From contig JACPUC010000010.1 of the NCBI GenBank assembly GCA_016192455.1, positions 62,001 through 90,855 on the forward strand: a stretch of DNA of 28,855 nt, read 5' to 3'. Shown here in pieces: positions 954-27,317 of this stretch. Both the position numbers and the translations under genes were made by a program. Each line of letters starts with the position of its first letter. The stretch's first letter is position 1. The notes under the pieces were generated by a model. The model was not told the origin of the DNA. It saw nothing but the letters and a program-made list of their open reading frames with translations, and ran no database searches. Origin of the DNA: Candidatus Tectimicrobiota bacterium (lineage in GTDB: Bacteria; JACPUC01).

Positions 954-1817
954 CTAGCGGCGCCGTTTCTCGAGGATTTCCACGAAGCGATGCAGTCGGC
1001 TGGCGCGCTGCTCCTCGCCGCCGTTGGCATAGATTTGCGCCAAGTTGCGCAGCATGCGGATGAGGATCTCGGCGTCACTTGAAGCCTGCAGGTACTCCTC
1101 GCGGAAGGAGAACCCGAAGCTGGCGAGGAGTTGGGCGCAATCGTGCCGAGCGAGGAGGCGGCCGCCGTTGAAGGCGTCGATGTAGACCTGGTAGTCCTCT
1201 GAGTCGTAGCGCAGGAGGAAGTGCGCCGGCATGCCGATGCCCACCACCGGCAAGCCGAGACGGCGGCAGATGAAGAGGTAGAGGGCGGAGAGGCTGATGG
1301 GGATGCCCAGCTTGCGTTCCAGGACGCGGTTCATGAAGCTGTTGTCGGGGTCGTAGTAGTTCTCGCGGTTGCCCCGGAAGCCGAGAACCTCGAAGAGCTG
1401 GAAGTTCACCGCCTCGATCTGCTCGTCCGGCTCGCGCGCCCGGCGCAGACGCTTGCGGATATCCTCGGCCATCTCGTCGAGGCCGCGGCGATGGGGCTGG
1501 CTGTCATAGTCGGGATAGGCGAAACGAGGCAGCAGAAAGACCCCCTCCTCGAGACTCGAGGCGCCGCCGGGGGTTTCGGCCAGCGCCTGAAACTGCCGCT
1601 CGAGCACCTTGGAGTTGATCTCTTCGAGGACGGCGCGGGCGCGCGCGCTGATGAGGGGGTTGGTGTCGTCCGCGGCCCGCAGGAGCGCGGCGGCGGCCCC
1701 CTCGCCGAGCTCCACCAGCTTGCGGCGCACCGACTTCCAGATGCCCGCGTCTTCCTCTTCCATGAGCTGCAGGAGCGCCTGCAGCTCCGCACCGTGACCA
1801 TGGGCGGGCTTACTCAT
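954..1817 (-). CDS. SirB1/YchA-like transglutaminase-core protein with N-terminal helical extension
   Basis: GFRGNRENYYDPDNSFMNRVLERKLGIPISLS, GIGMPAHFLLRY, YIDAFNGG and ILIRMLRNL are typical SirB1-family motifs. The start overlaps the upstream stop (ATGA). Confidence 0.88.
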   Translation of the reverse strand: MSKPAHGHGAELQALLQLMEEEDAGIWKSVRRKLVELGEGAAAALLRAADDTNPLISARARAVLEEINSKVLERQFQALAETPGGASSLEEGVFLLPRFAYPDYDSQPHRRGLDEMAEDIRKRLRRAREPDEQIEAVNFQLFEVLGFRGNRENYYDPDNSFMNRVLERKLGIPISLSALYLFICRRLGLPVVGIGMPAHFLLRYDSEDYQVYIDAFNGGRLLARHDCAQLLASFGFSFREEYLQASSDAEILIRMLRNLAQIYANGGEEQRASRLHRFVEILEKRRR

Positions 1818-3199
1818 CTATACAGCTCCAAACGCTCCTCCTTGGGGCGATGGTCGAAGATGCGTTTGCTCTTCAGCTCGTAGCGCGGCAGGGTCTGCGG
1901 CGGCACCACCTCGGTCTCCAGGCGCACGCCGATGGCGTCGCGGTAGACCGCTTCGGCCTGCGCGGCCACGGTGGCATAGTCTGTCGCCGGCACGCTGGGG
2001 TCGACCTCGATCTTCACCAGCATGCGGTCCATCCCCTCCGCCCGCGAGATGTGCAGCTCATAGTGCGGCGAGGCGCCAGGGACCTTGGCCAGGAGGTTCT
2101 CGATGGCGGTGGGATAGATGTTGACGCCGCGGATCGTCACCATGAAGTCGGAGCGCCCCAGGACGCTGCCGTCGAGCCAGCTCCAGGTCCAGCCGCAGCC
2201 GTGCTCGTGGCGGGCGGACCGGCGCACCAGGTCGTGGGTGCGGTACTTGATGAAGACCTGGCCGGTGTGCGCGAAGGTGGAGACGATGTTCTCCCCCACC
2301 TCGCCGTCGGGGACACGCTCCCCGGTGGCCGGATCAGCGCTGAACGAGTGGTAGGCCGACTCGACGGCATGCACGCCGCCGGCGTGCGCCCGGCACTCAA
2401 TGAAGCCGAGGTTCACTTCGCCGATGCCGTAGAAATCGCACACCGTGGCGCCCCAACCCTGTTCCAGGTAGCGGCGCGTGGTGGGGATGTTGAAGCCCGC
2501 CTCGCCGCCGCCGCTGACGAACTTCACGCTGCTGCGGCTCAGGTCGATGCCCTGCTTGCGCGCCAGATCGAGGAGGTGCACGAGGTAGGTCGGTGTCCCC
2601 ACCACGACGGTCGGCTGCAGGTCGAGAATCTGCTGGATGCGCTGCTCGCTGGTCATGCCGCCGCCGGAGTAGACCGTGGCGCCGATGGCGCGCACCCCCC
2701 AGTAGGCGCTCCAGAGGCCGATCCAGAGCCCCCAGTTGAAGCAGAAGTAGAAGCGGTCGCTGGGGCGGATGCCGCAGTCCCAGAACATGATGGCCCACTC
2801 ATCGCCGCAGCGCAGGCTGTCGTAATGGGTGAAGGCTTCGCGCAGGGGCGCCCCCGTGGTTCCGGAGGTCTGGAAGTAGTAGAGGTGGTAGTCCTCGGGC
2901 AGCGCCATGGAGGGGAAGAGGGACGTCTCCTGCTCCTTCAGGAAGTCGGGCTTATCGGTGAACGGCACCTTGGTGTAGAAGTCCTCCCAGGTATGGACAT
3001 CCTCCGGCGTGATCCCGGCCTTGTCGTAGAGGCGGCGATAGAGCGGCGAGTTCCGGTAGGCGTAAGCGAGGAGCAGCTTGATGCGGCGCCAGTGCAGCTC
3101 ATCGAGCTGCTCGCGCGGCAGCGTCATGAGGTACTCGTTCCAGAAACTGTTCCGCGCCGCCCGCGGGCCGAAGATTGGGCGAACGTCGCCTTGGCTCAC
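1814..3199 (-). CDS. Phenylacetate-CoA ligase family (PaaK-like) aryl/acyl-CoA ligase
   Basis: QTSGTTGAP P-loop, DFYGIGE, YRTHD, GRSDFMVTIRGVNIYP and the C-terminal LPRYELKSKRIFD. TAAGGAG RBS upstream of the GTG start. Substrate is not assignable. Confidence 0.88.
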   Translation of the reverse strand: MSQGDVRPIFGPRAARNSFWNEYLMTLPREQLDELHWRRIKLLLAYAYRNSPLYRRLYDKAGITPEDVHTWEDFYTKVPFTDKPDFLKEQETSLFPSMALPEDYHLYYFQTSGTTGAPLREAFTHYDSLRCGDEWAIMFWDCGIRPSDRFYFCFNWGLWIGLWSAYWGVRAIGATVYSGGGMTSEQRIQQILDLQPTVVVGTPTYLVHLLDLARKQGIDLSRSSVKFVSGGGEAGFNIPTTRRYLEQGWGATVCDFYGIGEVNLGFIECRAHAGGVHAVESAYHSFSADPATGERVPDGEVGENIVSTFAHTGQVFIKYRTHDLVRRSARHEHGCGWTWSWLDGSVLGRSDFMVTIRGVNIYPTAIENLLAKVPGASPHYELHISRAEGMDRMLVKIEVDPSVPATDYATVAAQAEAVYRDAIGVRLETEVVPPQTLPRYELKSKRIFDHRPKEERLELYR

Positions 3200-3535: not shown

Positions 3536-4096
3536 ATGAAGAAAATCCTGATTCATGGTCGCGGCGGCCAGGGCGCCAAGCTGGCCGGCGAACTCATCAT
3601 CGCCACGCTCTTCAAGCAGGGGCGCATGGTCCAGGGCATGCCGCTGTACACCGGCGCCAAGATGGGGCAGCCCCTGGTCTACTCGATCAAGATCGACCCC
3701 AGCGGCGACCGGGCCCTGCCGACCACCGGCATCGACGGCATCGTCGTGCTGCACCCCAACATGCTGACGCCCAACCTGACCAAGAACGCCAACCCCGGCT
3801 GCTACGTCCTCATCAACTGCCCGGAGGGGCCGGAAGCTTACGAGGGGCTGGCCGACATCGTCGCCTGCGTGGACGGCAATCGCATCGCCCGCGAGCACGG
3901 CCTGGTGAAGGCCAACGTGCCCACGGTCAGCACCACCATGGCCGGCGCCTTCACGCGCGTCAGCGAACTCTTTCCCTTCGAGGCCATGACGCAAGCCATT
4001 CGCGAGTATTTCCCCCGCCATGCCGAGGTGAACATCGAGGTTGCCAGGCGCGGCTTCAGTGAAGTTCAGCTCCTTGAGAGAATCCGACATGCGTGA
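3536..4096 (+). CDS. 2-oxoacid:acceptor oxidoreductase gamma subunit (PFOR/VOR/PadE type)
   Basis: N-terminal IHGRGGQGA, VLINCP and VDGNRIA motifs; 186 aa; in an operon with alpha and beta subunits. Confidence 0.88.
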   Translation: MKKILIHGRGGQGAKLAGELIIATLFKQGRMVQGMPLYTGAKMGQPLVYSIKIDPSGDRALPTTGIDGIVVLHPNMLTPNLTKNANPGCYVLINCPEGPEAYEGLADIVACVDGNRIAREHGLVKANVPTVSTTMAGAFTRVSELFPFEAMTQAIREYFPRHAEVNIEVARRGFSEVQLLERIRHA

Positions 4097-5810
4097 CGTC
4101 CGCTTTCATTCCGAAGGGGTGTCGCTCGACCTTGACATCAGCTCGCAGCGCACCCTGATTCCAATCTATGATTTCCACGAGAAGACCAGCCCCTGCCGCG
4201 TCGGCTGCCCCGCCGGGCACAACATCGCCTGGGCCCTGAATCAGGTGCGCAACGGCGACTTCAGCGCCGCCCTCGAGCTGTTCCGCGAGGAAAGCCCGTT
4301 CCCGTCCATCACCGGTCGCGTTTGCTACCACCCCTGCGAGCCGGTCTGCAACCGCGGCGCGCACGACGAGCCCCTGGCGATCAACATGCTCGAGCGCGCC
4401 ATGGCGGATCATGGGAAAGCAGCGCTGCCCGAGCCGTTGGCGCGTCATCCCGAGCAGATCGCCGTGATCGGCAGCGGGCCGGCGGGGCTCACCGCCGCCT
4501 ACCACCTGAGGTGGCTCGGCTACCGGGTGACGGTCTACGAGAAGCAGCAAGAGGCCGGCGGCGTGCTGCGCTACGGCATCCCCGACTATCGCCTGCCGAA
4601 GACCATCGTGCGCCGCGAAGTGGCACACCTGGCGCGCATGGGGATCGCGTTCCGCACCGGCGTGGCGGTCGGCTCCGACCTGCCCTTCGAGGAGCTCCTC
4701 GACGATCATGACGCCCTCTTCCTGGGAATCGGGCTGTCGGCGGGGCGCAAGCTGCCGCTGGAGGGGATTGATGCGCTCTCCTCGATGGCCGGCCTCGATT
4801 TCCTCTGGCGCGCCAAGGAGGGGTTGATCACCGAGCTGCGCGGCCGCGTCCTGGTGATCGGCGGCGGCGACGTGGCCATCGACGTGGCGCGTTCGGCGCG
4901 CCGTCTCGGCGCCGCATCGGTGGCTCTCTACTGCCTCGAGGATCGCCAGCACATGCCGGCCCACCCCGAGGAGGTCCACGAGGCCGGGCAGGAGAAGGTG
5001 GCGATCACCCCCGGCTGGGCGCCGGTCGCGCTCGCCTCGCGGCCCGACGGCGTCGTCGTGGAAATGCGCGGGGTGGACCGTCTGGAGAGCGGCCGCCCGG
5101 TCTTCAACGAGGCGCGCACCGAGGTTGCCTGCGACCACATCCTTTACGCCATCGGCCAGCAGGCGGAGGCGGCCTTCTTGCCGGCGGACTGGCTGACGGA
5201 CGGCCGGCTGCGCGTCAACGCCGTGGGCCAGACGGCGCACCCGAAGGTCTTCGCGGGCGGCGACATCGCCGGCAGCTACAACGTCGTGCAGGCCATCGGC
5301 GCCGCCAAGCTGGCCGTCCTTGGCATCGACTGCGCATTGCGCGGCCGCGACTGGCGCGCCTGGCTGCCGCGGATCAAGCTCGGCAACGGCCAGGCCATCT
5401 CGCTGCGCGCCTATCGGCAGCTCATCGTCGGTCAGCAGGCGCCGCAGGCGCGCTCCGTGGTGCCGTACGAAGCGATCAACGCCGACTACTTCCCGCGCCG
5501 CGAGCGCCTCGCCCGGCCGCACCTGGCCGTGGCGGAGCCCCGGAGCTTCGCGGAGGTGAACACCGAGGTCCCGAAGGACATCGCCATCCGCGAGGCGTCG
5601 CGCTGCTTCCACTGCGGCGAGTGCACGGTCTGCGGCAACTGCTTCATCTACTGCCCCGACTCGGCCGTGGTGCAGCGCCAGGACGGTTTCTTCGCCATCA
5701 ACGAGCTGCAGTGCAAGGGCTGCGGCCAGTGCGTGCAGGAGTGCCCGCGCGACGCCATGAGCATGGTGCTGGACCTGAAGCCGGAGAGCCAGGCGGCGGC
5801 GGTCGCCTGA
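4089..5810 (+). CDS. DsrL/GltD-like FAD-dependent NAD(P) oxidoreductase fused to a C-terminal 2x[4Fe-4S] (delta-like) domain, copy 1
   Basis: SPCRVGCPAG, GRVCYHPCEPVCNR, IGSGPAGL (FAD), GGVLRYGIPDYRLP, IGGGDVAID, VFAGGD, EASRCFHCG, CTVCGNCFIYCP and CKGCGQCVQECP. ATG at 4089 overlaps the gamma stop (ATGCGTGA). Confidence 0.9.
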   Translation: MRDVRFHSEGVSLDLDISSQRTLIPIYDFHEKTSPCRVGCPAGHNIAWALNQVRNGDFSAALELFREESPFPSITGRVCYHPCEPVCNRGAHDEPLAINMLERAMADHGKAALPEPLARHPEQIAVIGSGPAGLTAAYHLRWLGYRVTVYEKQQEAGGVLRYGIPDYRLPKTIVRREVAHLARMGIAFRTGVAVGSDLPFEELLDDHDALFLGIGLSAGRKLPLEGIDALSSMAGLDFLWRAKEGLITELRGRVLVIGGGDVAIDVARSARRLGAASVALYCLEDRQHMPAHPEEVHEAGQEKVAITPGWAPVALASRPDGVVVEMRGVDRLESGRPVFNEARTEVACDHILYAIGQQAEAAFLPADWLTDGRLRVNAVGQTAHPKVFAGGDIAGSYNVVQAIGAAKLAVLGIDCALRGRDWRAWLPRIKLGNGQAISLRAYRQLIVGQQAPQARSVVPYEAINADYFPRRERLARPHLAVAEPRSFAEVNTEVPKDIAIREASRCFHCGECTVCGNCFIYCPDSAVVQRQDGFFAINELQCKGCGQCVQECPRDAMSMVLDLKPESQAAAVA

Positions 5811-5821
5811 GCGCCGCGCGT

Positions 5822-5852
5822 CATGGCGCCAGGCAGAAGTGGGGCGTATATT
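5822..5852 (+). promoter_or_regulatory. Candidate internal promoter upstream of flavoprotein copy 2
   Basis: CATGGCGC-N17-TATATT, the same layout as CATGGCGC-N17-TATAAT at 3371-3401, within a 193-bp spacer. Confidence 0.35.
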
Positions 5853-6003
5853 GCTGAACTGGTCCGGAGGCGTCGCCCTCCTCGCCCGGCCGGGAGCCGG
5901 CGCGTCACGGCGAAGCAGACGCCTCGCGGCATCGCCCCGCAACGCCGAGCCACCGTCGCCGGCCGCGCTGTCCACGAAGTTCGCCCCCGGGAGTGAGTTC
6001 AGT

Positions 6004-7725
6004 ATGGGTGACCTGCGCTTCACCTCGAAAGGCTTGTCGTACGAGGTCGACATCAGCTCCCAGCGCACCATGGTGCCCGTCTACGACTTTCCCCAGAAGA
6101 CCAGTCCCTGCCGCGTCGGCTGTCCGGCGGGGCATGACATTGCCTGGGCGCTCTACCTGGTCCGCCAGGGCGAGTTCGGCGCCGCCCTGGCGCTGTTCCG
6201 CGAGGAGAGTCCCTTCCCATCCATCACCGGGCGCGTCTGCTACTACCCCTGCGAGGCAGTCTGCAACCGCGGCGAGCACGACGAGGCGCTGGCCATCAAC
6301 ATGCTCGAACGGGCTCTGGCGGATCACGGCACCATCCCAGCCCCCCGGCCCCTCGCCAGCCATGCCGAGCACATCGCCGTCGTCGGCAGCGGCCCCGCCG
6401 GCTTGACCGCCGCCTACCACCTGGCGTGGCTGGGCTATCGCGTCACGGTCTACGAGAAGGAGCAAGAGATCGGCGGGGTGCTGCGCTACGGCATCCCGGA
6501 CTACCGCCTGCCGCGGCAGGTGGTGCGCGACGTCGAGGCGATGCTGCGCGGCATGGGGGTGGCGTTCCGCACCGGCGCGGCCGTGGGGCCCGAGCTTCCC
6601 TTCAAGACCCTCCTGGCCGAGCATGACGCCCTCTTCCTCGGCGTCGGCCTGTCGGAGGCGCGCGCCCTGACGCTGAAGGGGATCGAGGCGGTCTCCTCGA
6701 TGCCAGGCATCGAGTTCCTCTACCGCGCCAAGGAGGGCCGCGTGCGGAGCATCGAGGGACACGTGCTGGTCATCGGGGCAGGCGACGTGGCCCTCGACGT
6801 AGCGCGCTCGGCCAAGCGCCTGGGCGCCGACAAGGTGAGCATCTACTACCGCGTCCACCTGCGGGCGCATCCGGAGGAGCTGCGCGAGGCGGCGCGGGAG
6901 CGCATCAGCATCGACGGCGGCTGGGAGCCGGTGCGCCTGGCGCCCCAGAAGGATGGCGGCGTCGTGGTGCGCATGCAGGGGGTCGATCACCTCGTGGAGG
7001 GTCGCGCCGTCCACAACGAGCGGCAGACCGAGGTGCGCTGCGACCACATCATCTACGCCGTCGGCCAGCGCGCCAACGCCTCCTTCCTGCCGCCCGAACT
7101 GCTCAGCAACGGCGGCCTGGCCGTCAATGCCCTGGGCCAGACGGCGCACCCCAAGGTGTTCGCCGGCGGCGACATCACCGGATCGTACAACGTCGTTGAG
7201 GCGATCGGCGGAGCGAAGCGCGCCGTCATCGGCATCGACAGCCTGCTGCGGGGACGGGACGGCGCGGCGCTGCTGGCGCGCGTCAGCCTCGGCGAGTCTC
7301 GGCCCGGGGAATCTCCGCCCGTCTCGCTGCGCTCCTATCGCCAGCTCCTGGGCGGCGAGGCGGCGCCCCTGGTGCGGCAGAGCGTGCCATACGCCGCCAT
7401 CAACGCCGACTACTTCCCGCCGCAAGAGCGCGTCGGCCGGCCCCACCTGGGCCTCGACGAGCGCCGCGGCCTATGTGACGAGGTGAACCTCGAGGTGCCG
7501 CGGGAGGTAGCGATCCGCGAGGCGTCGCGCTGCTTCCACTGCGGCGAGTGCACGGTCTGCGGCAACTGCTTCATCTACTGCCCAGACTCGGCCGTGCTGC
7601 AGGGGGAGGATGGCTTCTTCAGCATCAACGGCATGCAGTGCAAGGGCTGCGGCCAGTGCGTGGCGGAGTGCCCGCGCAGCGCCATGAGCATGGTGCCCGA
7701 AGGCGACGCCGTGGCGGTCGCCTAA
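6004..7725 (+). CDS. DsrL/GltD-like FAD-dependent NAD(P) oxidoreductase-ferredoxin fusion, copy 2 (tandem paralogue)
   Basis: Same motif series as copy 1. The start is placed at ATG 6004 because MGDLRFTSKGLS aligns with MRDVRFHSEGVS. Nucleotide-binding region reads IGAGDVALD...SIYYRVH. Confidence 0.9.
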   Translation: MGDLRFTSKGLSYEVDISSQRTMVPVYDFPQKTSPCRVGCPAGHDIAWALYLVRQGEFGAALALFREESPFPSITGRVCYYPCEAVCNRGEHDEALAINMLERALADHGTIPAPRPLASHAEHIAVVGSGPAGLTAAYHLAWLGYRVTVYEKEQEIGGVLRYGIPDYRLPRQVVRDVEAMLRGMGVAFRTGAAVGPELPFKTLLAEHDALFLGVGLSEARALTLKGIEAVSSMPGIEFLYRAKEGRVRSIEGHVLVIGAGDVALDVARSAKRLGADKVSIYYRVHLRAHPEELREAARERISIDGGWEPVRLAPQKDGGVVVRMQGVDHLVEGRAVHNERQTEVRCDHIIYAVGQRANASFLPPELLSNGGLAVNALGQTAHPKVFAGGDITGSYNVVEAIGGAKRAVIGIDSLLRGRDGAALLARVSLGESRPGESPPVSLRSYRQLLGGEAAPLVRQSVPYAAINADYFPPQERVGRPHLGLDERRGLCDEVNLEVPREVAIREASRCFHCGECTVCGNCFIYCPDSAVLQGEDGFFSINGMQCKGCGQCVAECPRSAMSMVPEGDAVAVA

Positions 7726-7862
7726 GCCGCTGGCCGGCGCCCCGCGCCTGGCCCGGCGCCACGCCATTAGGGTAGGCGAGCGTGCCGGCCGCCGCGTGCC
7801 GGTGGGGGGGCCGGCCTCCACAACGTGGCATCCGTGCGTGTCAGTGTCATGAGAGGCGGTCA

Positions 7863-9005
7863 ATGCGTACAATGATGAATGGCGCCGAGGCGATGGCCGA
7901 AGCGGCAAAGCTGTCCGGCGTGAAGGTGACGGCGGTCTTCCCCATCACGCCGCAGACGGAGGTTGCGGAGCTCCTCTGCAACACACCCGGCATCACCACC
8001 TTGCGCGGCAACTCCGAGTACAACGTCATGGCCCTCACCCAGGGGGCGGCGTGGGGTGGGGCGCGCGTCTTCACGGTGACGGCCGGCCAGGGCCTTGTCT
8101 TGATGAGCGAGCTGATGTGGGAGGTGGCGGGGAACCGCCTGCCCATCGTCATGGGGGTCTTCAGCCGCTCCCTGAAGGGTCCCACCTGGAGCCTCGGCTC
8201 ACAGCAGAACGACGCCCTGATGATGCGCGACACCGGCTGGCTGCAGTTCTACTGCGAGTCGGCGCAGGAGATCCTCGACTACATCCTCATCGCCTACAAG
8301 CTCTGCGAGCAGGTGAGCATGCCGGCGATGGTGGTGGGGGACGGCTTCTACCTCAGCCATACGACGGAACCCATCGACCTGCCCGAGCCCGAGCAGGTGG
8401 CGCGCTTCCTGCTTCCGGAGCCGCCGCAGAAGGTCCTGCCGATCGGCCTCGGCGCCACCGATTTCGCCAGCAAACGTCCACCCGTGGACTACTACCACTT
8501 CTACGAAGAGCTGAACGACGAAGTCCGCAATCTCCCCGAGGGTCCCCTGCCGCACGTTTTCGAAGAGTTCGCCCGCCTCTTCGGGCGCGAGCGGGGGCTT
8601 GTGGAGACCCACAACTGCGACCGCGCCAGGACGGTCTTCGTCACCTCCGGCATCACCAGCGGCACGGTGCGGGCCTACATCAACGAACACCCGGAGAGCT
8701 GCGCGGCGGTCGGTCTCATCAAGCTGCTGGGGCTGCGGCCCTTCCCGGAGCGCGAGCTGCTGGCGGCCATCGGCCCGCAGGTGGAGAACCTGGTAGTGAT
8801 CGACCGCAACGTCTCGGTCGGCCGCGGCGGCATCTGGGCGCAGGAGATCGCCGCCACCCTCTTCAACCGACCGGGGCCGCGGCCGACGCTCTTCAACTAC
8901 ATCGTCGGGATCGGCGGCGAGAACGTCGACCAGCAGGTGATCGAGCGCATCCACAAGGACATCATCAGCGGCAACGCGGAGACTGTGCCGCGCTTCATCC
9001 ACTAA
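7863..9005 (+). CDS. 2-oxoacid:acceptor oxidoreductase alpha subunit
   Basis: MMNGAEAMA, FPITPQTE, GARVFTVTAGQGLVLMSE, RDTGWLQFY, DGFYLSHT, LRPFP and VIDRN. GAGAGG upstream of ATG 7863. Confidence 0.9.
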   Translation: MRTMMNGAEAMAEAAKLSGVKVTAVFPITPQTEVAELLCNTPGITTLRGNSEYNVMALTQGAAWGGARVFTVTAGQGLVLMSELMWEVAGNRLPIVMGVFSRSLKGPTWSLGSQQNDALMMRDTGWLQFYCESAQEILDYILIAYKLCEQVSMPAMVVGDGFYLSHTTEPIDLPEPEQVARFLLPEPPQKVLPIGLGATDFASKRPPVDYYHFYEELNDEVRNLPEGPLPHVFEEFARLFGRERGLVETHNCDRARTVFVTSGITSGTVRAYINEHPESCAAVGLIKLLGLRPFPERELLAAIGPQVENLVVIDRNVSVGRGGIWAQEIAATLFNRPGPRPTLFNYIVGIGGENVDQQVIERIHKDIISGNAETVPRFIH

Positions 9006-9115
9006 CAGCCCGACACGGTTGGCAGGCGGCCGCCGCGGCGCTGCTTTCGAGCCCGGCGGCAACCTCCTCAGCCGGCAGCATAGAGCCTCGACCAGCGAGG
9101 CGGGACGAGCAGCGT

Positions 9116-10042
9116 ATGCTTACCTTCCCTCAGTTCAAAGAGCAGATCATGTACGGCGGGCACAGCGCCTGCCCCGGCTGCGGCTCCACGGTGGCGCTGC
9201 GCATGGTGCTGGACGCCATGGGGCCGAACACCACGATGTTCGTGCCGGCGAGCTGCGCCAGCACCTACGTGGGCTTCATGCGCTCGAGCACCGAGGTGCA
9301 CGCCGTGCACTGCCTCTACCCCAGCGCCTTCGGGCAGGCGGCCGGTTTCGTCACGGCGCGGCGCCTGGCCGGCGATGACGTCGAGGTGATGATCTGGGGC
9401 GGCGACGGGGCGTTCTACGACATCGGCATGGACGGCCTGTCGCACGTGGCGGCGCAAGGGTTCGACATCGTGGCGGTGTGCAACGACAACCAGGGCTACA
9501 TGAACACCGGCCACCACAGCTCCAGCTCGACCATCCTGGACACCGATACCAAGCTCACGCCGGGCGGCATGCGGACGGGCCACAAGGAGATCATGGACAT
9601 CATGGTGGCCCACAACATCACCTACGCCGCCACCATCTCCGCCGCCTACCCGGAAGACCTGAAGGCCAAGGTCGCCAAGGCGAAGGGCCTGCCGGGGTTC
9701 AAGTTCCTGCACCTGCTGGCAAGCTGCGTGAACTGGGGCTACGAGGTGGAGATCGGCGTCAAGCTGGCCCGCCTGGTGGTGACCACCCGCATCCACCCCC
9801 TCTACGAAGTGGAGCGCGGCGAGTACCGTTTCACCTGCCTGCCGCCGCAGGCGCCGGTGCAGGAGTACCTGAAGCTGCAGGCGCGCTTCCGCGGCACCAA
9901 CGTGGAGGCGTTCCAGAAGGCCATCGACGACCGCTTCGCGATAATCTGGGAGAAGGCCGCCGGGCGCGTCGCGCCGCTCGTCGATGACCCCGCGGGCACG
10001 CGCATGTTCCTGCAGCAGCAGCCCGTGGCGGCGGGTGCTTGA
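9116..10042 (+). CDS. 2-oxoacid:acceptor oxidoreductase beta (TPP-binding) subunit
   Basis: GHSACPGCG, ASCAST, the TPP motif GGDGAFYDIG...NDNQGYMNTG, and EYLKLQARF. This is the 3' part of track ORF 8051..10042. Confidence 0.9.
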   Translation: MLTFPQFKEQIMYGGHSACPGCGSTVALRMVLDAMGPNTTMFVPASCASTYVGFMRSSTEVHAVHCLYPSAFGQAAGFVTARRLAGDDVEVMIWGGDGAFYDIGMDGLSHVAAQGFDIVAVCNDNQGYMNTGHHSSSSTILDTDTKLTPGGMRTGHKEIMDIMVAHNITYAATISAAYPEDLKAKVAKAKGLPGFKFLHLLASCVNWGYEVEIGVKLARLVVTTRIHPLYEVERGEYRFTCLPPQAPVQEYLKLQARFRGTNVEAFQKAIDDRFAIIWEKAAGRVAPLVDDPAGTRMFLQQQPVAAGA

Positions 10043-10601: not shown

Positions 10602-11045
10602 CTACGGCAGGGGGCGATCTTTCGTGGCGCGCCAGAAGAAGGCCGCCAGGTCCTCGGCATGCATGCGCTTGATGGCGCGGGGGAAATGGGCTTTCCCGTC
10701 AAGGGGAGGTGGCAGCCGCAGCCACTGGAGAATCTTTCGTGGGGTCTGCTGCCGAGCCCAGGTCGTCAGATCGACGGCCTCGGCAAGACGCAGCGCCTCC
10801 AGCGCCTCGAGCCGCTCCGCGCGCTGCTGATCGGAGGGCGCGGAAGCCGGTCCACCGTATCTCACCTCATGGATGACGACGGTGTGACAGGCGGCGCACC
10901 GCGTCTCGAAGACCCGCAGGCCGCGCTTCGGGCTGCCGGCCATCGCCGCCGGCGGGCTTCCCAGCATTGCGGCGCCGCCGGCAAGAAGTCCGAGGAGACC
11001 TCCCCAGAGCAGAACCCGCGCCAAGGAGCCATCCGCCCTACGCAT
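10602..11045 (-). CDS. Exported monoheme c-type cytochrome (147 aa)
   Basis: GGAG RBS before ATG 11045, hydrophobic signal segment, GSPKRGLRVFETR-CAACH (CxxCH at 10884-10898), and a C-terminal helix AEDLAAFF. Confidence 0.72.
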   Translation of the reverse strand: MRRADGSLARVLLWGGLLGLLAGGAAMLGSPPAAMAGSPKRGLRVFETRCAACHTVVIHEVRYGGPASAPSDQQRAERLEALEALRLAEAVDLTTWARQQTPRKILQWLRLPPPLDGKAHFPRAIKRMHAEDLAAFFWRATKDRPLP

Positions 11046-11113
11046 TCTACTTCTCCAGCGGCCACGGGCCGACCGCCAGGCCGCGCGAAGGGAGAGGCGC
11101 CGCTCCGCCACCC

Positions 11114-12211
11114 CTACGAGCGCAGATCGAGCACCGTCTTCGAGGGGTAGAGGCCGGAGACCTTGCCCGCCACGGTCTCGACAGCCTGTTGCGCCTCTTC
11201 GAGGCCGTAGCGCTGATCGACGATGTCCTCGATGGGGTACTTGCGCGAGCGCACCAGGTTCGCCGCCAGCGTATGCGCTTCGGTGCCGCTCGACAGCACG
11301 CCGAGCAGGCGCAGCTCCTTGAACTGCAGCTTCTGGAGGAAGAGCGGCGTCACCGTCTCGGTGCCGGAGAGGCCGGCGGCCACGATCGTGCCCAGCGGCG
11401 CGGCGAGGTCGGCGGCGATGCTGACGGCGCGCGGGTCGCCGGTGACCTCGACGACGACGTTCGCCAAGTCGCCGCCGGTGATGTCGCGCACCGTCTGCGC
11501 CAGGTCTTCCTTCTCGATGTCGATGCAGTAGTCGGCGCCGAACCGCCGCGCCAGCTCGAAGCGCCGCGCGTCGCGCGTCAGCCCTGTCACGATCACCGTG
11601 CGGGCGCCGCACTCGCGCGCCACAATGGTGGCGCACAGCCCCTGCTGCCCCACCCCCTCGATGACCACGATGTCCCCCGACTGCACGCGCCCCATGAGGT
11701 GCACCCATTCATAGGCGTTGGCGAGCACGGAGGGCGTCAGCGCGCAGGCTTCGGCGGGCAGGTCGTCGGGCATCTTGTGGAGGACGCTGTTGGGCGCGAG
11801 GTACATGTGCTCCCCGTAGCCGCCCCAGAGGTGCGGGGGCGCGACCGCGTTCGTCAGCGTGCCGTAGCCGATGAGGTGCAGGCAGTGCTTGAAGTGCCCC
11901 AGTCGGCACTGCTTGCAGAAGCCGCAGGGGACGAAGTTCTCGACGATGACGCGGTCCCCCGGCTGCACCCCCCAGCGCTGCGCCGCCAGGTCGCCCGCCG
12001 CCGCCACCCGACCCAAAATCTCATGGCCCAGGATCACCGGGTAGCCGCCGGCCTGCACCTTGCCGTAGAAGATCGACGGGTCGGTGCGGCAGATGCCCAC
12101 CATCTCCACCTTCAGCAAGCCGTCGTCGGCATGCAGCTCCGGCACGGGATACTCCCGCAAGCGCATTTCACCGATCTTCTCCACCACCGCCGAGGTTGTC
12201 TTTTTCGCCAT
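11114..12211 (-). CDS. Zinc-dependent medium-chain alcohol/polyol dehydrogenase
   Basis: GICRTD, ILGHE, structural Zn site CGFCKQCRLGHFKHC and Rossmann segment VIEGVGQQG. Start placed at MAKKTTS (12211). Confidence 0.9.
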   Translation of the reverse strand: MAKKTTSAVVEKIGEMRLREYPVPELHADDGLLKVEMVGICRTDPSIFYGKVQAGGYPVILGHEILGRVAAAGDLAAQRWGVQPGDRVIVENFVPCGFCKQCRLGHFKHCLHLIGYGTLTNAVAPPHLWGGYGEHMYLAPNSVLHKMPDDLPAEACALTPSVLANAYEWVHLMGRVQSGDIVVIEGVGQQGLCATIVARECGARTVIVTGLTRDARRFELARRFGADYCIDIEKEDLAQTVRDITGGDLANVVVEVTGDPRAVSIAADLAAPLGTIVAAGLSGTETVTPLFLQKLQFKELRLLGVLSSGTEAHTLAANLVRSRKYPIEDIVDQRYGLEEAQQAVETVAGKVSGLYPSKTVLDLRS

Positions 12212-12436: not shown

Positions 12437-14038
12437 ATGACCGGGGAACCAACTCGACCGATTGCCGGCCGCGCCAGCGCTGCGGCCACGGCTGCCTTCG
12501 CCCGCCGGCAGGGGGCGGCGCGGCCGCGCCTGGAGCCGACGGCCTTCCGCGAGCTGAGCGGCACGGGCCTCACCGTCTCCAAGGTGGGCTACGGCACCTA
12601 CCGCGTGCACGTCGACGTACCGGAGCACCATGAGACGCTCGCCGAGGCGATCCGCCGCGGCTGCAACTGCATCGACACCTCGAGCAACTATACGGACGGC
12701 GGCAGCGAACGCCTCATCGGCGCGGTGCTGGGCGACCTCATCGGGGCCGGCGAGGCGCGGCGCGAGGAAATCGTGCTGGTCTCGAAGGTGGGCTACCTGC
12801 AAGGGCAGAACCTTGACCTGGCGGTGCAGCGCCAGGCGCGGGGGAACCCCTGGCCGGAGATTGTCCATTACCAAGAGGGTTGCTGGCACTGCATCCACCC
12901 CGATTTCCTCGTGGACCAGCTCGAACGCAGCCTGGCCCGCCTGCGGTGCAGCGCCCTCGATGTCTACCTCCTCCACAACCCGGAGTACTTCTTCGCACAC
13001 GCCCTGCATGACTCCGGCTCCCAGGACCTGCCGGCCCTGCGCGACGAGTTCTATCGCCGCGTGGAGCGCGCCTTCGCGCAGTTCGAGCGCTTCATCCAGG
13101 AGGGGCGGCTGTCATTCTACGGCATCTCCTCGAACACCTTCCCCAATCCGCGGCAGGACGGCGAGACGGTCAGCCTCGACCGCGTCCTGGCGGCGGCCCG
13201 CCGGGCCGCGGCGGAGGTGCTCGGCGACCCTGAACGGCACCACTGCAAGGTCGTGCAGCTCCCCTACAACCTCTTTGAGAGCGGCGCTCTGACGGAGCGC
13301 AACACGCCGCTCAACGGCGCCTCGGCAACCCTCCTCGAGGCCGCGGCCGCCTGGGGCGTCGGCGTCCTCGTCAACCGCCCCCTCAACGCCATCCGCGGCA
13401 ATTCCATGCACCGCCTGGCGCGGCCGGCGCCGCCGCCGGGGAGCGACTATGCCGGCGAGCTCGAGACGACGCTGCGCGCCCTGCAAACAACGGAAGCAGC
13501 GCTGCGCCAGGAGATGGAGGGGTGGCCCCAGCCCCCGCGCGCCTCGGACCTCGGCCCGCAGCAGCAGTTCTTCTTCGACGTCGGCGAGGTGCTGGCCGCC
13601 AACCTCGCGCGCCTGCCGGCGGGCGAGCAGTGGGAGATGATCGTCGGCCGGATCCTCGCCCCGAACATCCAGAAGGCCCTCGAGGAGGCCCTGCGCCGCT
13701 GCCCGATTGAGCGCCGCGAGGCCTGGAAGGGGCGGCAGCCGGCCTACGTTGAGCAGCTCAACGCTCTCCTCGCCGGCATCCGGCGCTACCACGAGTGGCG
13801 CGCCGCCGAGCAGATGGCGCCGCTCGACGACCGCCTGGCGGCCTGCCTGCCGCCCGGCACTCCCCAGGCGACGCTCTCCCAGAAGGCCCTCCAGTTCGTC
13901 GCCTCGTCTCCCGGCGTCGCCGTCGTCCTTAACGGCATGAAGCGCTCCCCGTACGTGGAAGATGCCCTCGCCATCATGGAGATGCCGTCGTATGCTGACG
14001 TGATGGGGCTGGCAGCCGCGGCCTACGAAACCTCCTGA
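12437..14038 (+). CDS. Long aldo/keto reductase family protein
   Basis: VGYGTYR, IDTSSNYTDGGSERLIG, VSKVGY, LERSLARL, YLLHNPE, YGISSN, VQLPYN and VLNGMK. AGGAGG RBS. Helical insert in the C-terminal half. Confidence 0.9.
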   Translation: MTGEPTRPIAGRASAAATAAFARRQGAARPRLEPTAFRELSGTGLTVSKVGYGTYRVHVDVPEHHETLAEAIRRGCNCIDTSSNYTDGGSERLIGAVLGDLIGAGEARREEIVLVSKVGYLQGQNLDLAVQRQARGNPWPEIVHYQEGCWHCIHPDFLVDQLERSLARLRCSALDVYLLHNPEYFFAHALHDSGSQDLPALRDEFYRRVERAFAQFERFIQEGRLSFYGISSNTFPNPRQDGETVSLDRVLAAARRAAAEVLGDPERHHCKVVQLPYNLFESGALTERNTPLNGASATLLEAAAAWGVGVLVNRPLNAIRGNSMHRLARPAPPPGSDYAGELETTLRALQTTEAALRQEMEGWPQPPRASDLGPQQQFFFDVGEVLAANLARLPAGEQWEMIVGRILAPNIQKALEEALRRCPIERREAWKGRQPAYVEQLNALLAGIRRYHEWRAAEQMAPLDDRLAACLPPGTPQATLSQKALQFVASSPGVAVVLNGMKRSPYVEDALAIMEMPSYADVMGLAAAAYETS

Positions 14039-15787: not shown

Positions 15788-15816
15788 TTGACGACGCCAC
15801 GACGCGCTGCTATCGT
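15788..15816 (+). promoter_or_regulatory. Candidate sigma70 promoter for solute-binding protein 1
   Basis: TTGACG-N17-TATCGT with an extended TGn. Confidence 0.55.
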
Positions 15817-15993
15817 CCCAGCATACCACAGCTCATGAGCGCGACGGCAGGGCGGCCCCCACACTGCCGCGGCAGGACCTGGCAGAGCCCCCGAGGTGTT
15901 GAACTGCCAGTGCGAACGGCGGGGGGTAGCGGCGGGATATTCCGCCACGGAAGTGCGGACGTCTTCAACGAAGCCACGAGAAGGAGGAGAACG

Positions 15994-17040
15994 ATGACGA
16001 CCTTTTCCTTGCTTGCGAGAAGAAGCGTTCGTTTCGTTGGAGTGTTCGTCGCGGTTGCGGTGATGGCGGTCAGCCTGCATGGAGTGCCGACGGCCACGGC
16101 GGAGCCCGTGAAGGTGCGCATCGGCGCCTCGAGCATCCTGCCGACGGTCATCTTCCCAATGTTCTACAAAAAGCCTGAGCTGCTGAAGCACTACGGCAAG
16201 TCGTACACCGTTGATCTGCCGGTGATCAATTCGACTTCCATCCAGTTGCAGGCGCTGGCCGCCAAGGAGATCGACCTGGGATTCCTGGCGGCCTTGAGCC
16301 TGGGGAACGCCATCCAGAACGCCAAGCTTGACCTCCGGGTGGTGAGCGACCTGGTGCAGGAGGGCATCGAGGGCCGCTCCATCAACCGCTGGCTGGCCTT
16401 GGACTCCTCGGGCATCACCAAGCCGGAGCACCTGAAGGGGAAGAACATCGGGGTTTTGGCCTACGGCACGGCGGTGGACCTCATCCTGCGCACCTACCTG
16501 AAGCAGCACGGCCTGGACCCGAACCGCGATGTGAACATCGTCGAGGCGGCCTTTCCCAATCAGGGTCCGATGATGCGCGCCGGCAAGCTCGATGTGGCGG
16601 GTCTCGTCATCCCCTTCACCGTCATCGAACAGGCCAAGGGGGGAGTCCATACGGTGTTCGGCGGACCGGACGCCATGGGCCGTCATCAGGCGCTCATCAC
16701 GGTGGCGCGCACCGAGTTCCTGCAACAGAACCGGCAGGTCATGAACGATTTCTTCGAGGACTGGTTGAACGCCTGGCGCTGGTTCATTGATCCGAAGAAC
16801 AAGCAAGAGGTGCTGCAGATCGCCTCGAGCATGAGCAAAATTCCGGTGGACAAGCTGCAATGGTACGGCACCACCGATGACTACTACCGCGACCCCGCCG
16901 CCATGCCGCACCTGCCGTCGCTGCAGCGCAACGTCGATACGGCCTTCGAGATGGGCTTCATCAAGGAGCGCCTAGATGTGGCGAAGATCACCGACCTCTC
17001 CTTCCTCGAGGAGGCGAAGCGGCGGCTGGGGGTCAAGTAA
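15994..17040 (+). CDS. ABC transporter substrate-binding protein, SsuA/NMT1/THI5-like
   Basis: AAGGAGG RBS, Sec signal ending ATA-E, SGITKPEHLKGKNIGV, GLDPNRDVNIVE and C-terminal DLSFL. This is the 3' part of track ORF 14737..17040. Confidence 0.88.
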   Translation: MTTFSLLARRSVRFVGVFVAVAVMAVSLHGVPTATAEPVKVRIGASSILPTVIFPMFYKKPELLKHYGKSYTVDLPVINSTSIQLQALAAKEIDLGFLAALSLGNAIQNAKLDLRVVSDLVQEGIEGRSINRWLALDSSGITKPEHLKGKNIGVLAYGTAVDLILRTYLKQHGLDPNRDVNIVEAAFPNQGPMMRAGKLDVAGLVIPFTVIEQAKGGVHTVFGGPDAMGRHQALITVARTEFLQQNRQVMNDFFEDWLNAWRWFIDPKNKQEVLQIASSMSKIPVDKLQWYGTTDDYYRDPAAMPHLPSLQRNVDTAFEMGFIKERLDVAKITDLSFLEEAKRRLGVK

Positions 17041-18257: not shown

Positions 18258-18527
18258 GTTGTGAACCAGAGAGGATGAGCCAGGCGGCAGGCGCGGGAAC
18301 CACGGCGTCTCCCTCAGCCGTTCTTCGAGACCGCATCACCACGCGGCATGGAAACCTCCATGCTGCTTGGCACCCCGGCGCGAAACGCCGCGGCGAAGCT
18401 TTCGGCGGCGGCCGGGTGGGGTAGCTCGGCGCCTGCATGCGGGCGGTGCGCGCGGCGATCGTCGAGCGTCTCCCCCGCAACGTTCAACGTTCCCCGTCGC
18501 GCCTTTAGGGATGAAAGGGAACCGGAC

Positions 18528-19886
18528 ATGGAATACGATCTGCGCGCGGCGCTCAGGCAATATCAGCAGGTGGGCGAGCTCGTCAGCATCGGCAAAGAGA
18601 TCGACCCCAGGTATGAACTCTCGGCGGTGCTCTGGAAGCTACGCCAGGGCCCGGCCGTCTGCTTCGAGAAGGTGAAAGGCTCGCCCTTCCGCGTCGTGGG
18701 GAACGTCATCAACACCCGGCGCAAGCTCGCCATTGCCCTGGGGATCGACGAGAGCGAGGTCCTGACGCATGGCGTGGAAGCCTTGGAGAACCCGCTGCCG
18801 TGCGAGACCCTGGGCGACGCCCCCTGCAAGGAGGTGAAGATCACCCCGGTTCCCGACCTGAGCAGAATCCTGCCCATCCCGAACGTCTCGGAGCATGACG
18901 GCGGCCCCTACATCACCGCCGGCATCGCCGTTGCCCGGCATCCGGAGACCGGCCAGCGCAACTACTCCATCCACCGCATGCAGTTCCACGGCGGCAACGT
19001 CTGCGGCATCAGCCTGGCGCCGACGCATCTGAGCAAGATCGCCCAGAGCTGCCGGGCCTTAAAAAAGCCCCTCGAGCTGGCGATCTCGATCGGCAATCAC
19101 CCGGTGATCTGCTTCGCCGCATGCATGTACGTGCCGTCGGGCCATGACGAGCTGGAGGTGGCGGGCGGCATGCTGGGCAAGCCGGTGCAGCTCGTGAAAT
19201 GCGAGACGGTGGACCTCGAGGTGCCGGCGGCTTCGGAGATCGTGCTGGAGGGCGAGCTCTGCTACGACGATGTGCGCGACGAAGGCCCCTTCGGCGAGTT
19301 CCACGGCGCCTATGCCGCCCAGGGTCGCAAGCCGACGTTCCACGTCAAGGCCGTCACGCACCGCAAGGATGCGCTCTACCAGACCATCGTCGGCAGCATC
19401 CACCCCGAGCACCTCTTCCTCACCGGCATGCCGCGAGCCATGACCCTCTACCGCGCTCTCAAGGTAGCCAACCCGCGCATTCAGGATATCGCCATGACTA
19501 ACGGCGGTTGCGGCCTCTTCCACGCCGCTATCTCGGTGAAGAACCCCTCCGAGGGGGAGGGCAAGCGCGTCATTTTCAATGCCTTCGGGGTGAATGACCT
19601 GCTGAAGAAGGTGACCGTGGTCGATGACGACATCGACGTGCACGACCCCGTGCAGGTGGAGTGGGCGACGGCCACGCGCATGCACGCCGACCGCGACGTC
19701 TTCATCGTCCCGCACGTGAAGGCCAGCCCCGCCGATCCCCTCAATGAGAACCTCCTCATCTCAAAGATGGGGATTGACGCCACGAAACCACGCACCGATA
19801 ACCCGGAGCGCTTCAAGTTCGCCTTCGTCCCGAAGAGCGTCTACGCCGAGGTGGAGAAGAACTGGGAGAGCTACGTGAAGGGATGA
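18528..19886 (+). CDS. UbiD family prFMN-dependent (de)carboxylase
   Basis: DGGPYIT, SIHRMQ, VPAASEIVLEG, EGPFGEFHG, VVDDDIDV, VEWATATR and SKMGIDAT. Start MEYDLR after AAAGGGA. Confidence 0.92.
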   Translation: MEYDLRAALRQYQQVGELVSIGKEIDPRYELSAVLWKLRQGPAVCFEKVKGSPFRVVGNVINTRRKLAIALGIDESEVLTHGVEALENPLPCETLGDAPCKEVKITPVPDLSRILPIPNVSEHDGGPYITAGIAVARHPETGQRNYSIHRMQFHGGNVCGISLAPTHLSKIAQSCRALKKPLELAISIGNHPVICFAACMYVPSGHDELEVAGGMLGKPVQLVKCETVDLEVPAASEIVLEGELCYDDVRDEGPFGEFHGAYAAQGRKPTFHVKAVTHRKDALYQTIVGSIHPEHLFLTGMPRAMTLYRALKVANPRIQDIAMTNGGCGLFHAAISVKNPSEGEGKRVIFNAFGVNDLLKKVTVVDDDIDVHDPVQVEWATATRMHADRDVFIVPHVKASPADPLNENLLISKMGIDATKPRTDNPERFKFAFVPKSVYAEVEKNWESYVKG

Positions 19887-20018
19887 GGTGGGGCGGCGGC
19901 GCCGGACACTCGGCCGCACCGTCTCGTCGTCTCACGCCATATTCCGGCTGCCGCTTGCAATCGCAGCGATCGGGCGGGGGGACCATCTTCCCTCGCCCGC
20001 CGGCGCTCCGCCCCCTGC

Positions 20019-20047
20019 TTGACACGGTGCGACGCCGATCGCATACT
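20019..20047 (+). promoter_or_regulatory. Sigma70 promoter of the first hydantoinase-like pair
   Basis: TTGACA-N17-CATACT, 66 nt upstream of ATG 20114. Confidence 0.7.
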
Positions 20048-20113
20048 CGCCGCACATTCCGGAGAGCATCCTCCTGTCGCGTCGCCGTACCACCCACCTG
20101 AAAGCGCGCCTCC

Positions 20114-22234: not shown

Positions 22235-22239
22235 GGCGC

Positions 22240-23937: not shown

Positions 23938-24028
23938 GGGGCGCGCCATGGCGCACCGCGCCCCCGCTGCCCGCCGTTTCGTCACTCGCCTACGTCCAGA
24001 AGCAGCGCCGTCTGGAGGAGGGTCAGTC

Positions 24029-25030: not shown

Positions 25031-25192
25031 GCGATCACGGTGGGGCGCGGCCGGCGGGGCGGCGCCTTCGCTCCGCCGCGGCCCGCGCGCCGCGCGAGTT
25101 TCTGAACACCCTCGCTGCTCGGTGCGCCTGCCGGCGCTCCCCGCTGGCGCGACCGCACCGGTGGGGGAGCCGCGTCGTCTGTGGTGCCGCCC

Positions 25193-27259: not shown

Positions 27260-27317
27260 AGAAGCGCGTCGGGCCCTTCTCGGCGGAAGGCCCGCCGCGC
27301 ATGGAGCGGCTATCCCC

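Follow-up and report, generated by a model that had tools for sequence, protein, structure and literature searches.

The window analysed here, a stretch of 28,855 nucleotides from the genome of a Candidatus Tectimicrobiota bacterium (assembly GCA_016192455.1, contig JACPUC010000010.1, positions 62,001 to 90,855 of the forward strand), contains an operon for a predicted 2-oxoacid:ferredoxin oxidoreductase (OFOR) in which two tandem, paralogous iron-sulfur flavoproteins, called copy 1 and copy 2, stand at the place of the small delta ferredoxin. We propose that the operon codes for an oxidoreductase that reduces nicotinamide adenine dinucleotide or its phosphate (NAD(P)) through two delta-flavoprotein arms, the nucleotide pocket of copy 2 having been remodelled toward NADP, and we give this reading a probability of about 0.5. 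OFOR-type enzymes in which an added flavoprotein passes electrons to NAD+ or NADP+ are already known. What would be new, and is partly supported by the sequence comparisons described below, is a lineage-specific second output subunit with a nucleotide pocket remodelled toward NADP, found in one genome only.

Five genes of the plus strand, in the order gamma, copy 1, copy 2, alpha and beta, were located at 3536-10042 of the window, which has a G+C content of ~65-73%, and the 3′ end of the gamma gene overlaps the start of copy 1 by 8 nt (Table 1). The alpha and beta proteins matched the Por, Vor, Pad and oxalate models of NCBIfam, none of them reaching an equivalog cut-off; the top model was PorA_Arch for alpha (279 bits) and the VorB-type PRK11864 for beta (241.8 bits), each under its own cut-off. 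By the domain matches listed in Table 1, gamma, alpha and beta are subunits of a Por/Vor-type 2-oxoacid oxidoreductase of the four-subunit type. Four cysteine residues of beta, C19, C22, C47 and C204, were invariant in 29 sequences and we infer that they are the ligands of the proximal cluster. The usual gene order of pyruvate:ferredoxin oxidoreductases (PFORs) is porC-porD-porA-porB, as given in the accessible part of a 2026 review (PMC13768988). No free-standing delta ferredoxin of ~80-130 aa was present in the operon of the window; the one place where the delta motif occurred was the C-terminal end of each 573-aa protein, as a domain. On gene position and domain content, the fused flavoprotein-ferredoxin subunit is the replacement of the small delta ferredoxin in this operon.

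Table 1 Features of the window
Feature	Position	Strand	Remark
PaaK-like aryl/acyl-CoA ligase	1814..3199	-	Divergently transcribed; Pfam AMP-binding and AMP-binding_C_2
OFOR gamma subunit	3536..4096	+	PF01558, 1.5e-27; TIGR02175 PorC_KorC, 91.1 bits, above the 81.1 cut-off
Copy 1, Fe-S flavoprotein with PorD-like ferredoxin domain	4089..5810	+	573 aa; Glu-type loop (predicted NAD)
Copy 1 GGGDVA (G258-A263)	4860..4877	+	GxGxxA of the NAD(P) fold, from the sequence
Copy 1 Y281-C282-L283-E284 (TAC TGC CTC GAG)	4929..4940	+	C-L-E aligned with NfnB Y310-R311-R312
Copy 1 C506-C552	5604..5744	+	Cys 506 and 509, then CxxCxxCxxxCP twice (delta-ferredoxin domain); invariant Cys, PorD matches
Inter-copy spacer, 193 nt	5811..6003	+	Similarity to the DNA upstream of copy 1 limited to the last 30 nt
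Copy 2, paralogue with the same architecture	6004..7725	+	573 aa; rebuilt nucleotide loop
Copy 2 GAGDVA (G258-A263)	6775..6792	+	G259A departs from a clade-conserved column
Copy 2 loop Y281-Y282-R283-V284-H285-L286-R287	6844..6864	+	After strand beta-2; 3 residues shorter, two Arg, no acidic residue
Copy 2 C510-C556	7531..7671	+	Ten Cys as in copy 1; invariant alignment columns
OFOR alpha subunit	7863..9005	+	POR_N (PF01855), 4.8e-49; PFOR_II (PF17147), 4.3e-19
OFOR beta subunit, thiamine-pyrophosphate-binding	9116..10042	+	TPP_enzyme_C (PF02775), 5.2e-14

The open reading frames (ORFs) of the two copies, 4089-5810 and 6004-7725 with stop codons included and with the ATG chosen that matches the N-termini of homologues, lie between gamma and alpha/beta, in agreement with a preliminary description of this DNA that had seen two 573-aa flavoprotein-ferredoxin fusions at the delta position. 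The two proteins are 67% identical (391/580 columns, E = 0). Both matched Fer4_20 (PF14691), Pyr_redox_2 (PF07992) and a C-terminal 2x[4Fe-4S] domain with PorD and PorD_KorD matches (Pfam, NCBIfam), and the delta model TIGR02179 scored 49.8 with copy 1 and 48.4 with copy 2, for a cut-off of 60.05. The motif GSGPAG for flavin adenine dinucleotide (FAD) and that of the second fold, GGGDVA in copy 1 or GAGDVA in copy 2, are present. In a family alignment of 28 members including both copies, 15 cysteines and one glutamate were invariant (in copy 1 numbering C36, C40, C79, C83, E84, C87, C506, C509, C512, C515, C518, C522, C542, C545, C548 and C552), which is enough for four [4Fe-4S] clusters. These residues are the same in both copies, in line with the earlier remark that their Fe-S motifs are nearly identical. 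By its ligand content, the PorD-like domain is the carrier of two [4Fe-4S] clusters and the GltD/NfnB/DsrL-type body that of two more, plus FAD and a pyridine-nucleotide site. We also infer that Cys 506 and 509 of copy 1 complete the GltD-type clusters. Residues 486-513 of copy 2 (ending RCFHC) aligned in HMMER to the N-terminal residues 15-42 of T. maritima NfnB, and the corresponding stretch of both copies to the segment that follows the flavoprotein in StnC and NfnABC. From these alignments, two ligands of the GltD-type clusters seem to be supplied after the flavoprotein body and not by the N-terminus, so that the ligand arrangement would seem to be permuted relative to NfnB and GltD. This pre-ferredoxin segment has the pattern F-x-E-V-N ... 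E-A-x-R-C-x-x-C; in copy 1 it comprises residues 481-510 (window 5529-5618) and in copy 2 residues 486-513 (window 7459-7542).

The AlphaFold2 (AF2) models of copy 1 and copy 2 had a predicted local distance difference test score (pLDDT) of 91.3 and 91.6, respectively, with a predicted template modelling score of 0.91 for both, and the copy 2 model matched NfnABC, StnC, NfnI, NfnB, GltD and DPD in the PDB. The identity between the two copies is unevenly distributed along the alignment, with peaks of 90% in the Fe-S segments at columns 61-90 and 511-540, the latter being the C-terminal ferredoxin core, and minima of 50% at columns 271-330, which cover the nucleotide-binding region and the following domain, and of 43% at columns 421-450, in a linker stretch.

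The end of strand beta-2 is the classical selector of the cofactor in these folds, an acidic residue going with NAD and basic residues with NADP. In T. maritima NfnB, the residues Y310-R311-R312 hold the NADP phosphate, and DsrL-2, which has YRR, uses NADP(H) only, DsrL-1 without YRR using NAD(H), according to the accessible part of Loeffler et al. (PMC7596348); the preliminary description had relied on YRR as an NADP mark, and for NfnB and DsrL-2 this is published there. In HMMER alignments Y282-R283-V284 of copy 2 falls on this triplet, and the C-L-E of copy 1 is that of its whole clade. In the AF2 models, the triplet comes after strand beta-2 (residues 277-282 in copy 1 and 277-281 in copy 2), and the Glu of copy 1 stands at the end of this strand. 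Y-R-R was not found in copy 1 (C-L-E), and copy 2 has two of the three residues (Y-R-V). The motifs that had been quoted, YCLE at 4929-4940, YYR at 6844-6852 (codons TAC TAC CGC), GGGDVA versus GAGDVA and a copy 2 loop three residues shorter, proved exact in sequence and position, as did the caveat attached to them that the second Arg is missing from copy 2.

In the codon alignment, copy 2 lacks CTC GAG GAT (L283-E284-D285), a 9-nt in-frame deletion, and carries the two changes TGC>TAC (C282Y) and CCG>CGG (P290R), with CGC (R286, now R283) and CAC being kept, so that the loop now reads Y-Y-R-V-H-L-R-A. Judged by these codons, copy 2 is derived from a Glu-type ancestor and it was the deletion that placed Arg286 beside the strand. 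The triplet is a two-state site in the family: among 118 database matches 53 were Arg-type (YRR 42, YHR 9, YQR 2) and 65 had x-x-E (CLE 26, AVE 22, CPE 7 and others), and 80 proteins from 78 loci gave YRR 56 times, x-x-E 23 times (ALE 14) and YPG once. Position 261 co-varies with the loop, being Asn in 108/109 Arg-type members, against 67 Asp, 15 Ser, 5 Asn and one Leu among the 88 Glu-type members. On a FastTree phylogeny of 194 full-length members (105 Arg-type, 87 Glu-type and 2 other), built with the three loop columns left in, at least 4 changes of state are needed. A word search with residues 258-300 of copy 2 returned copy 2 alone among 93 candidates, and in a search with the whole protein the best match was copy 1, at 67%, with nothing closer.

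The conservation of copy 2 was measured on the 169 alignment columns in which 60 Glu-type relatives show a conservation of 90% or more. Copy 1 departs from them at none, and copy 2 keeps 164/169, the exceptions being H81Y, G259A, P290R, F487L and the missing E284, a residue with 100% conservation; three of the five fall in the NAD(P) beta-alpha-beta unit. All 16 cluster ligands are kept in copy 2, whose ORF is intact over 573 codons with a G+C content at third codon positions (GC3) of 0.92, as in copy 1. Against the orthologue of L001, a Binatia metagenome-assembled genome that is the closest relative with genomic context, the dN/dS ratio was 0.27 for copy 2 and 0.21 for copy 1. The retention of these columns and ligands indicates that copy 2 is not decaying, and we predict from it a functional but altered protein.

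The age of the duplication was examined on the protein tree and on synonymous sites. In an IQ-TREE phylogeny of 28 proteins, copy 2 was placed outside a clade made of copy 1 and seven database proteins (P0002-P0008), with ultrafast bootstrap and SH-aLRT supports of 99/96, and the approximately unbiased (AU) test, run after the free tree had been seen, rejected the grouping of copy 1 with copy 2 (p = 0.0145). By the protein tree and the AU test, the duplication more likely preceded the split from P0002-P0008. The synonymous distances point in the opposite direction or are saturated, with a dS of 0.56 between the two copies against 1.07 for copy 1-L001 and 0.92 for copy 2-L001. Four-fold sites were identical at 143/232 between copy 1 and copy 2 (permutation mean 122.1, sd 6.3, z = 3.3), at 97/218 between copy 1 and L001 (mean 91.3, sd 6.1, z = 0.9) and at 101/212 between copy 2 and L001 (mean 85.3, sd 5.9, z = 2.7). 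This conflict with the tree could come from a shared extreme codon bias (GC3 0.92) or from gene conversion. Upstream of the two start codons, 17/30 bases are identical by our own count (4059-4088 versus 5974-6003), a purine-rich ribosome-binding stretch included. The rest of the spacer resembles nothing upstream of copy 1, and the start of the duplicated segment seems to lie only some tens of bases ahead of the ATG. The possibility that the spacer is a relic of gamma or a repeated spacer was rejected, a local alignment with the 3′ part of gamma and the copy 2-alpha spacer scoring 20 for a shuffle mean of 19.3.

Of 8000 candidates scored in the copy 1 search, 7311 proteins reached E <= 0.001; the top 120 matches had, with few exceptions, 520-630 aa, and several were labelled as OFOR delta subunits by one source. 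Gene contexts were surveyed with one genome per species in the best 80 of 333 confirmed loci, several of which end at contig ends. Each of the 80 had one full-length fused gene (F), which adjoined alpha and/or beta in 75 and stood alone in the other 5; the order was gamma-F-alpha-beta in 52 loci and gamma-alpha-beta-F in 23, truncated forms included. This makes the fused delta-flavoprotein a common subunit whose gene is, as a rule, present once. In L001, the gamma, F, alpha and beta proteins are 73, 70, 76 and 85% identical to those of the window, F is single, and the neighbouring genes (histidine kinase, sulfatase, DUF1302) are unrelated to the window. At a threshold of at least 35% identity over at least 120 aa, the flanking genes of the window had no counterpart in any of the 80 loci. 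All 23 loci with F after beta are of the YRR type and come mostly from Burkholderiales and Rhodocyclales; a group of Burkholderiales with F between gamma and alpha has an A-L-E loop with GGGSAA, and in genera such as Rubrivivax and Rhodoferax either loop type is met within one genus, depending on the genome record. An additional GltD-like gene (~420 aa, YRR type) without ferredoxin domain is found near the operon at L047:7045-8301 and L070:14353-15564.

These contexts bear on the possibility that the copies have different partners, one being the delta subunit of the operon and the other docking on an oxidoreductase encoded elsewhere or acting free, as an NAD(P)H:ferredoxin-type enzyme. The DsrL architecture does serve a partner other than a 2-oxoacid oxidoreductase, as the accessible part of PMC7596348 describes, the window covers 28.9 kb of a contig of ~159 kb, and L047 and L070 have their extra GltD-like genes; such a division of partners is nevertheless improbable in our view, for the operon encloses the two genes between gamma and alpha, their products share 90% identity in the ferredoxin core, and the single fused gene of the surveyed loci so regularly adjoins alpha and/or beta.

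Several observations weigh against the proposed remodelling of copy 2 toward NADP and against a regulated use of the two arms. The triplet is Y-R-V, without the second Arg of Y-R-R; Asp261, a mark of the Glu type where the Arg type has Asn, is retained; and the loop is devoid of the Met-Pro that is near-universal in both types (Pro290 is 98% conserved), with a mean pLDDT of 80 at residues 281-290 compared to 91 in copy 1. The dN/dS ratio between copy 1 and copy 2 is 0.41, above both orthologue pairs. A search of 5.8 billion protein clusters turned up neither an orthologue of copy 2 nor another protein with its loop, a tandem pair of full-length fused genes was seen in 0/80 of the best 80 loci, some of them limited by contig ends, and selection for the tandem arrangement is seen in one genome only. 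In the 193-nt spacer, no promoter-like or terminator-like site was found, and no structured RNA, with no Rfam match and an RNA fold z of 0.62. From this absence both copies are probably co-transcribed, and as there is no sign of separate regulation, co-expression is likelier than swapping. The preliminary description had called the two proteins possible swappable modules, for which the spacer offers no ground, and had suggested looking for the same pair in other genomes; in the best 80 loci it did not recur.

For the loop itself, the retained Asp261 and the missing second Arg speak against a complete switch to NADP; copy 2 resembles a hybrid and may use both cofactors. The loss of Met-Pro and the dip in pLDDT make a weaker nucleotide binding in copy 2 possible. 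The earlier suggestion that the paralogues may differ as NAD and NADP enzymes is supported in so far as the site is two-state and the deviations of copy 2 gather in its nucleotide fold, and it is weakened by the partial Y-R and the retained Asp261. It is somewhat unlikely, by our estimate, that both copies use the same nucleotide or that copy 2 is less selective, the loop changing affinity and not cofactor identity, with labour divided by dosage, kinetics, redox tuning or direction (oxidative decarboxylation versus reductive carboxylation). Copy 2 does keep the Glu-type Asp261-Val262 with no second Arg, variants such as YHR and YQR are tolerated in the family, and H81Y, within the cluster-ligand motif CYHPCE, could shift the potential of a cluster. 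Yet the deleted residue, Glu284, is the one that is invariant in 60/60 Glu-type relatives, and Tyr and Arg were gained at the two phosphate-holding positions of NfnB; with no role for cofactor identity, this would be quite a coincidence.

Some of the same observations would suit a copy 2 that is redundant and heading for loss, its loop deletion having harmed nucleotide binding and its gene being silent or its product inactive: the gene is a singleton without orthologue, the near-universal Met-Pro is gone, the pLDDT of the loop is lower, and the ratio of 0.41 between the copies is raised. We regard this as slightly more improbable still than a division of partners. It is opposed by the intact frame of 573 codons with the same GC3 as copy 1, by the 164/169 conserved columns and the 16 ligands, and by the ratio of 0.27 against L001; moreover, a duplication that preceded the split from the seven lineages (99/96, AU p = 0.0145) would mean a long retention.

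For an oxidoreductase with two delta-flavoprotein arms, the PorD-like domain would dock on alpha/beta as delta does, and electrons would pass from thiamine pyrophosphate (TPP) to the beta cluster, the two delta clusters, the two GltD-type clusters, FAD and finally NAD(P)+, making the complex a ferredoxin-independent 2-oxoacid:NAD(P)+ oxidoreductase. Copy 1 would use NAD(H), and copy 2 would accept NADP(H), instead of or beside NAD(H). With one set of alpha, beta and gamma in the operon, the copies most likely compete for one delta site. Enzymes of the OFOR class are dimers of (alpha-beta-gamma-delta) units, hence with two delta sites per holoenzyme, and the cell would contain complexes linked to NAD beside others linked to NADP, or dimers in which copy 1 and copy 2 are combined. 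A complex prediction for alpha, beta and residues 478-573 of copy 2 scored 0.51, and a control in which alpha was replaced scored 0.44, a result that counts neither way. The NfnB-type flavin, on which both arms are built, is the bifurcating flavin in Nfn, and a mixed complex, with copy 1 as the NAD arm and copy 2 as the NADP arm, might act as an Nfn-like coupling device and so be more than an enzyme with a choice of outputs, an idea that we consider very improbable. NADH, NADPH and the low-potential 2-oxoacid/acyl-CoA couple would then be joined in one cluster network, which could allow transhydrogenation driven by oxidation of the 2-oxoacid, or reductive carboxylation paid for by splitting the electrons of NADPH between the TPP site and NAD+.

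If the paralogues do differ in cofactor, a single TPP/Fe-S core could feed both the NADH (catabolic) and the NADPH (anabolic) pool without ferredoxin, Nfn or transhydrogenase, and redox partitioning would depend on which subunit is made or assembled. The pair would then be a natural experiment on the choice between NAD and NADP in GltD/NfnB/DsrL modules. Between the Glu-type loop and the loop with Arg there are just one 9-nt deletion and two base substitutions, which gives a short list of mutations for Nfn, DsrL or glutamate synthase. The fused delta-flavoprotein is common in genomes and no characterised member was found in the open-access literature searched, so that its biochemistry would give a name to many genes.

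The enzyme predicted for the window shares direct reduction of a pyridine nucleotide through an added flavoprotein subunit with the 2-oxoglutarate:NADP+ oxidoreductase (KGOR) of Azoarcus evansii, reportedly described by Ebenau-Jehle, Boll and Fuchs in 2003. KGOR is said to have one flavoprotein subunit, NADP+-specific, on a two-subunit KorAB-type core, unlike the window, which has a four-subunit-type core and two paralogues. The KGOR alpha subunit of A. evansii sits among GltD/NfnB/DsrL homologues in a published phylogeny (PMC10134865, accessible part). DsrL has the same domain order, with an N-terminal 2x[4Fe-4S] domain, FAD, an NAD(P) site, a linker and a C-terminal 2x[4Fe-4S] domain, and the same split between YRR and non-YRR sets NADP against NAD in it (PMC7596348, accessible part). 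DsrL partners DsrAB, whereas the C-terminal domain of the window proteins matches PorD models and their genes stand at the delta position of an OFOR operon. An identity with DsrL was rejected, as the scanned proteins of the window include no dsr product and the adjacent genes code for OFOR subunits. The closest solved relatives are the large subunits of NfnB, NfnI-L, StnC and NfnABC (PDB 4ylf, 5jca, 8oh5, 9bov, 9n5u), with E values of 1e-57 to 1e-74 and template modelling scores of 0.61-0.74 normalised to the query. Like the two copies, they have GltD-type clusters, FAD and the nucleotide fold, but they are NADPH-binding (YRR) and electron-bifurcating, work with NfnA-type partners and free ferredoxin, and do not form part of a TPP enzyme.

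Phenylglyoxylate:NAD+ oxidoreductase, reportedly described by Hirsch et al. in 1998, likewise reduces a pyridine nucleotide through an added flavoprotein. This enzyme, PadEFGHI of Azoarcus, Thauera and Aromatoleum, has five subunits and reduces NAD+. In Thauera, padE-I and paaK, for phenylacetate-CoA ligase, are in one operon, and the delta subunit (PadF, ~100 aa) and the flavoprotein are separate genes, according to the accessible part of a preprint (bioRxiv 10.64898/2026.01.30.702948); the window shares with this context a PaaK-like ligase beside the operon and differs from it in having the two parts fused. An identity with PadEFGHI was rejected on the scores against PadE, PadG and PadI, 51.2 for a cut-off of 300 with gamma, 181.7 for 700 with alpha and 130.5 for 700 with beta, and no Pad flavoprotein model was among the best 25 NCBIfam matches of either copy. 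The best curated model of both copies was NF009410 of NCBIfam (PRK12771, 'NAD(P)-binding protein', 566 aa), which carries no functional name; it scored 463.6 with copy 1 and 433.2 with copy 2, both under the 516 cut-off. As it spans nearly the full length of both, the fused architecture is already catalogued. No description of a delta-flavoprotein fusion or of a tandem pair was found in the open-access literature searched, and a flavoprotein-fused delta is unmentioned in the accessible parts of a review on GltD modules (PMC8097209) and of the 2026 PFOR review (PMC13768988). A Rhodoferax genome paper names a four-gene cluster 'phenylglyoxylate:acceptor oxidoreductase' (PMC2755013).

Around the operon, phenylacetate-CoA ligase PaaK was the best NCBIfam model of the divergently transcribed ligase, with 227.6 bits for a cut-off of 646.3. 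Downstream of beta there are genes for a Zn-dependent dehydrogenase, an aldo-keto-reductase-like ORF, an O-methyltransferase, a UbiD-family decarboxylase and two hydantoinase A/B pairs. This gene content fits an aromatic or aryl-acid metabolism. In the 1-kb gap between the beta and Zn-dehydrogenase genes, to which nothing else was assigned, a 147-aa ORF on the minus strand (10602-11045, GC3 0.78) has a signal-peptide-like N-terminus and one CxxCH haem motif (CAACH), and its product may be a periplasmic c-type cytochrome; the ORF 10605-11708 that encloses it had no Pfam match. A 533-aa ORF on the plus strand (12437-14038) matched aldo/keto reductase only at residues 50-234 (profile positions 2-142 of 291) and no NCBIfam model, perhaps because the reductase is truncated or fused, perhaps because the ORF is over-extended. 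At 18348-28853, the UbiD-family decarboxylase (VdcC-like, 286 bits, under the cut-off) is followed by the two consecutive hydantoinase A/B pairs, the top models of which were caprolactamase CapA/CapB and acetophenone carboxylase subunits, all under cut-off. Genes for SsuA/NMT1-like binding proteins were seen between the hydantoinase pairs and, upstream, at ~15800-17040.

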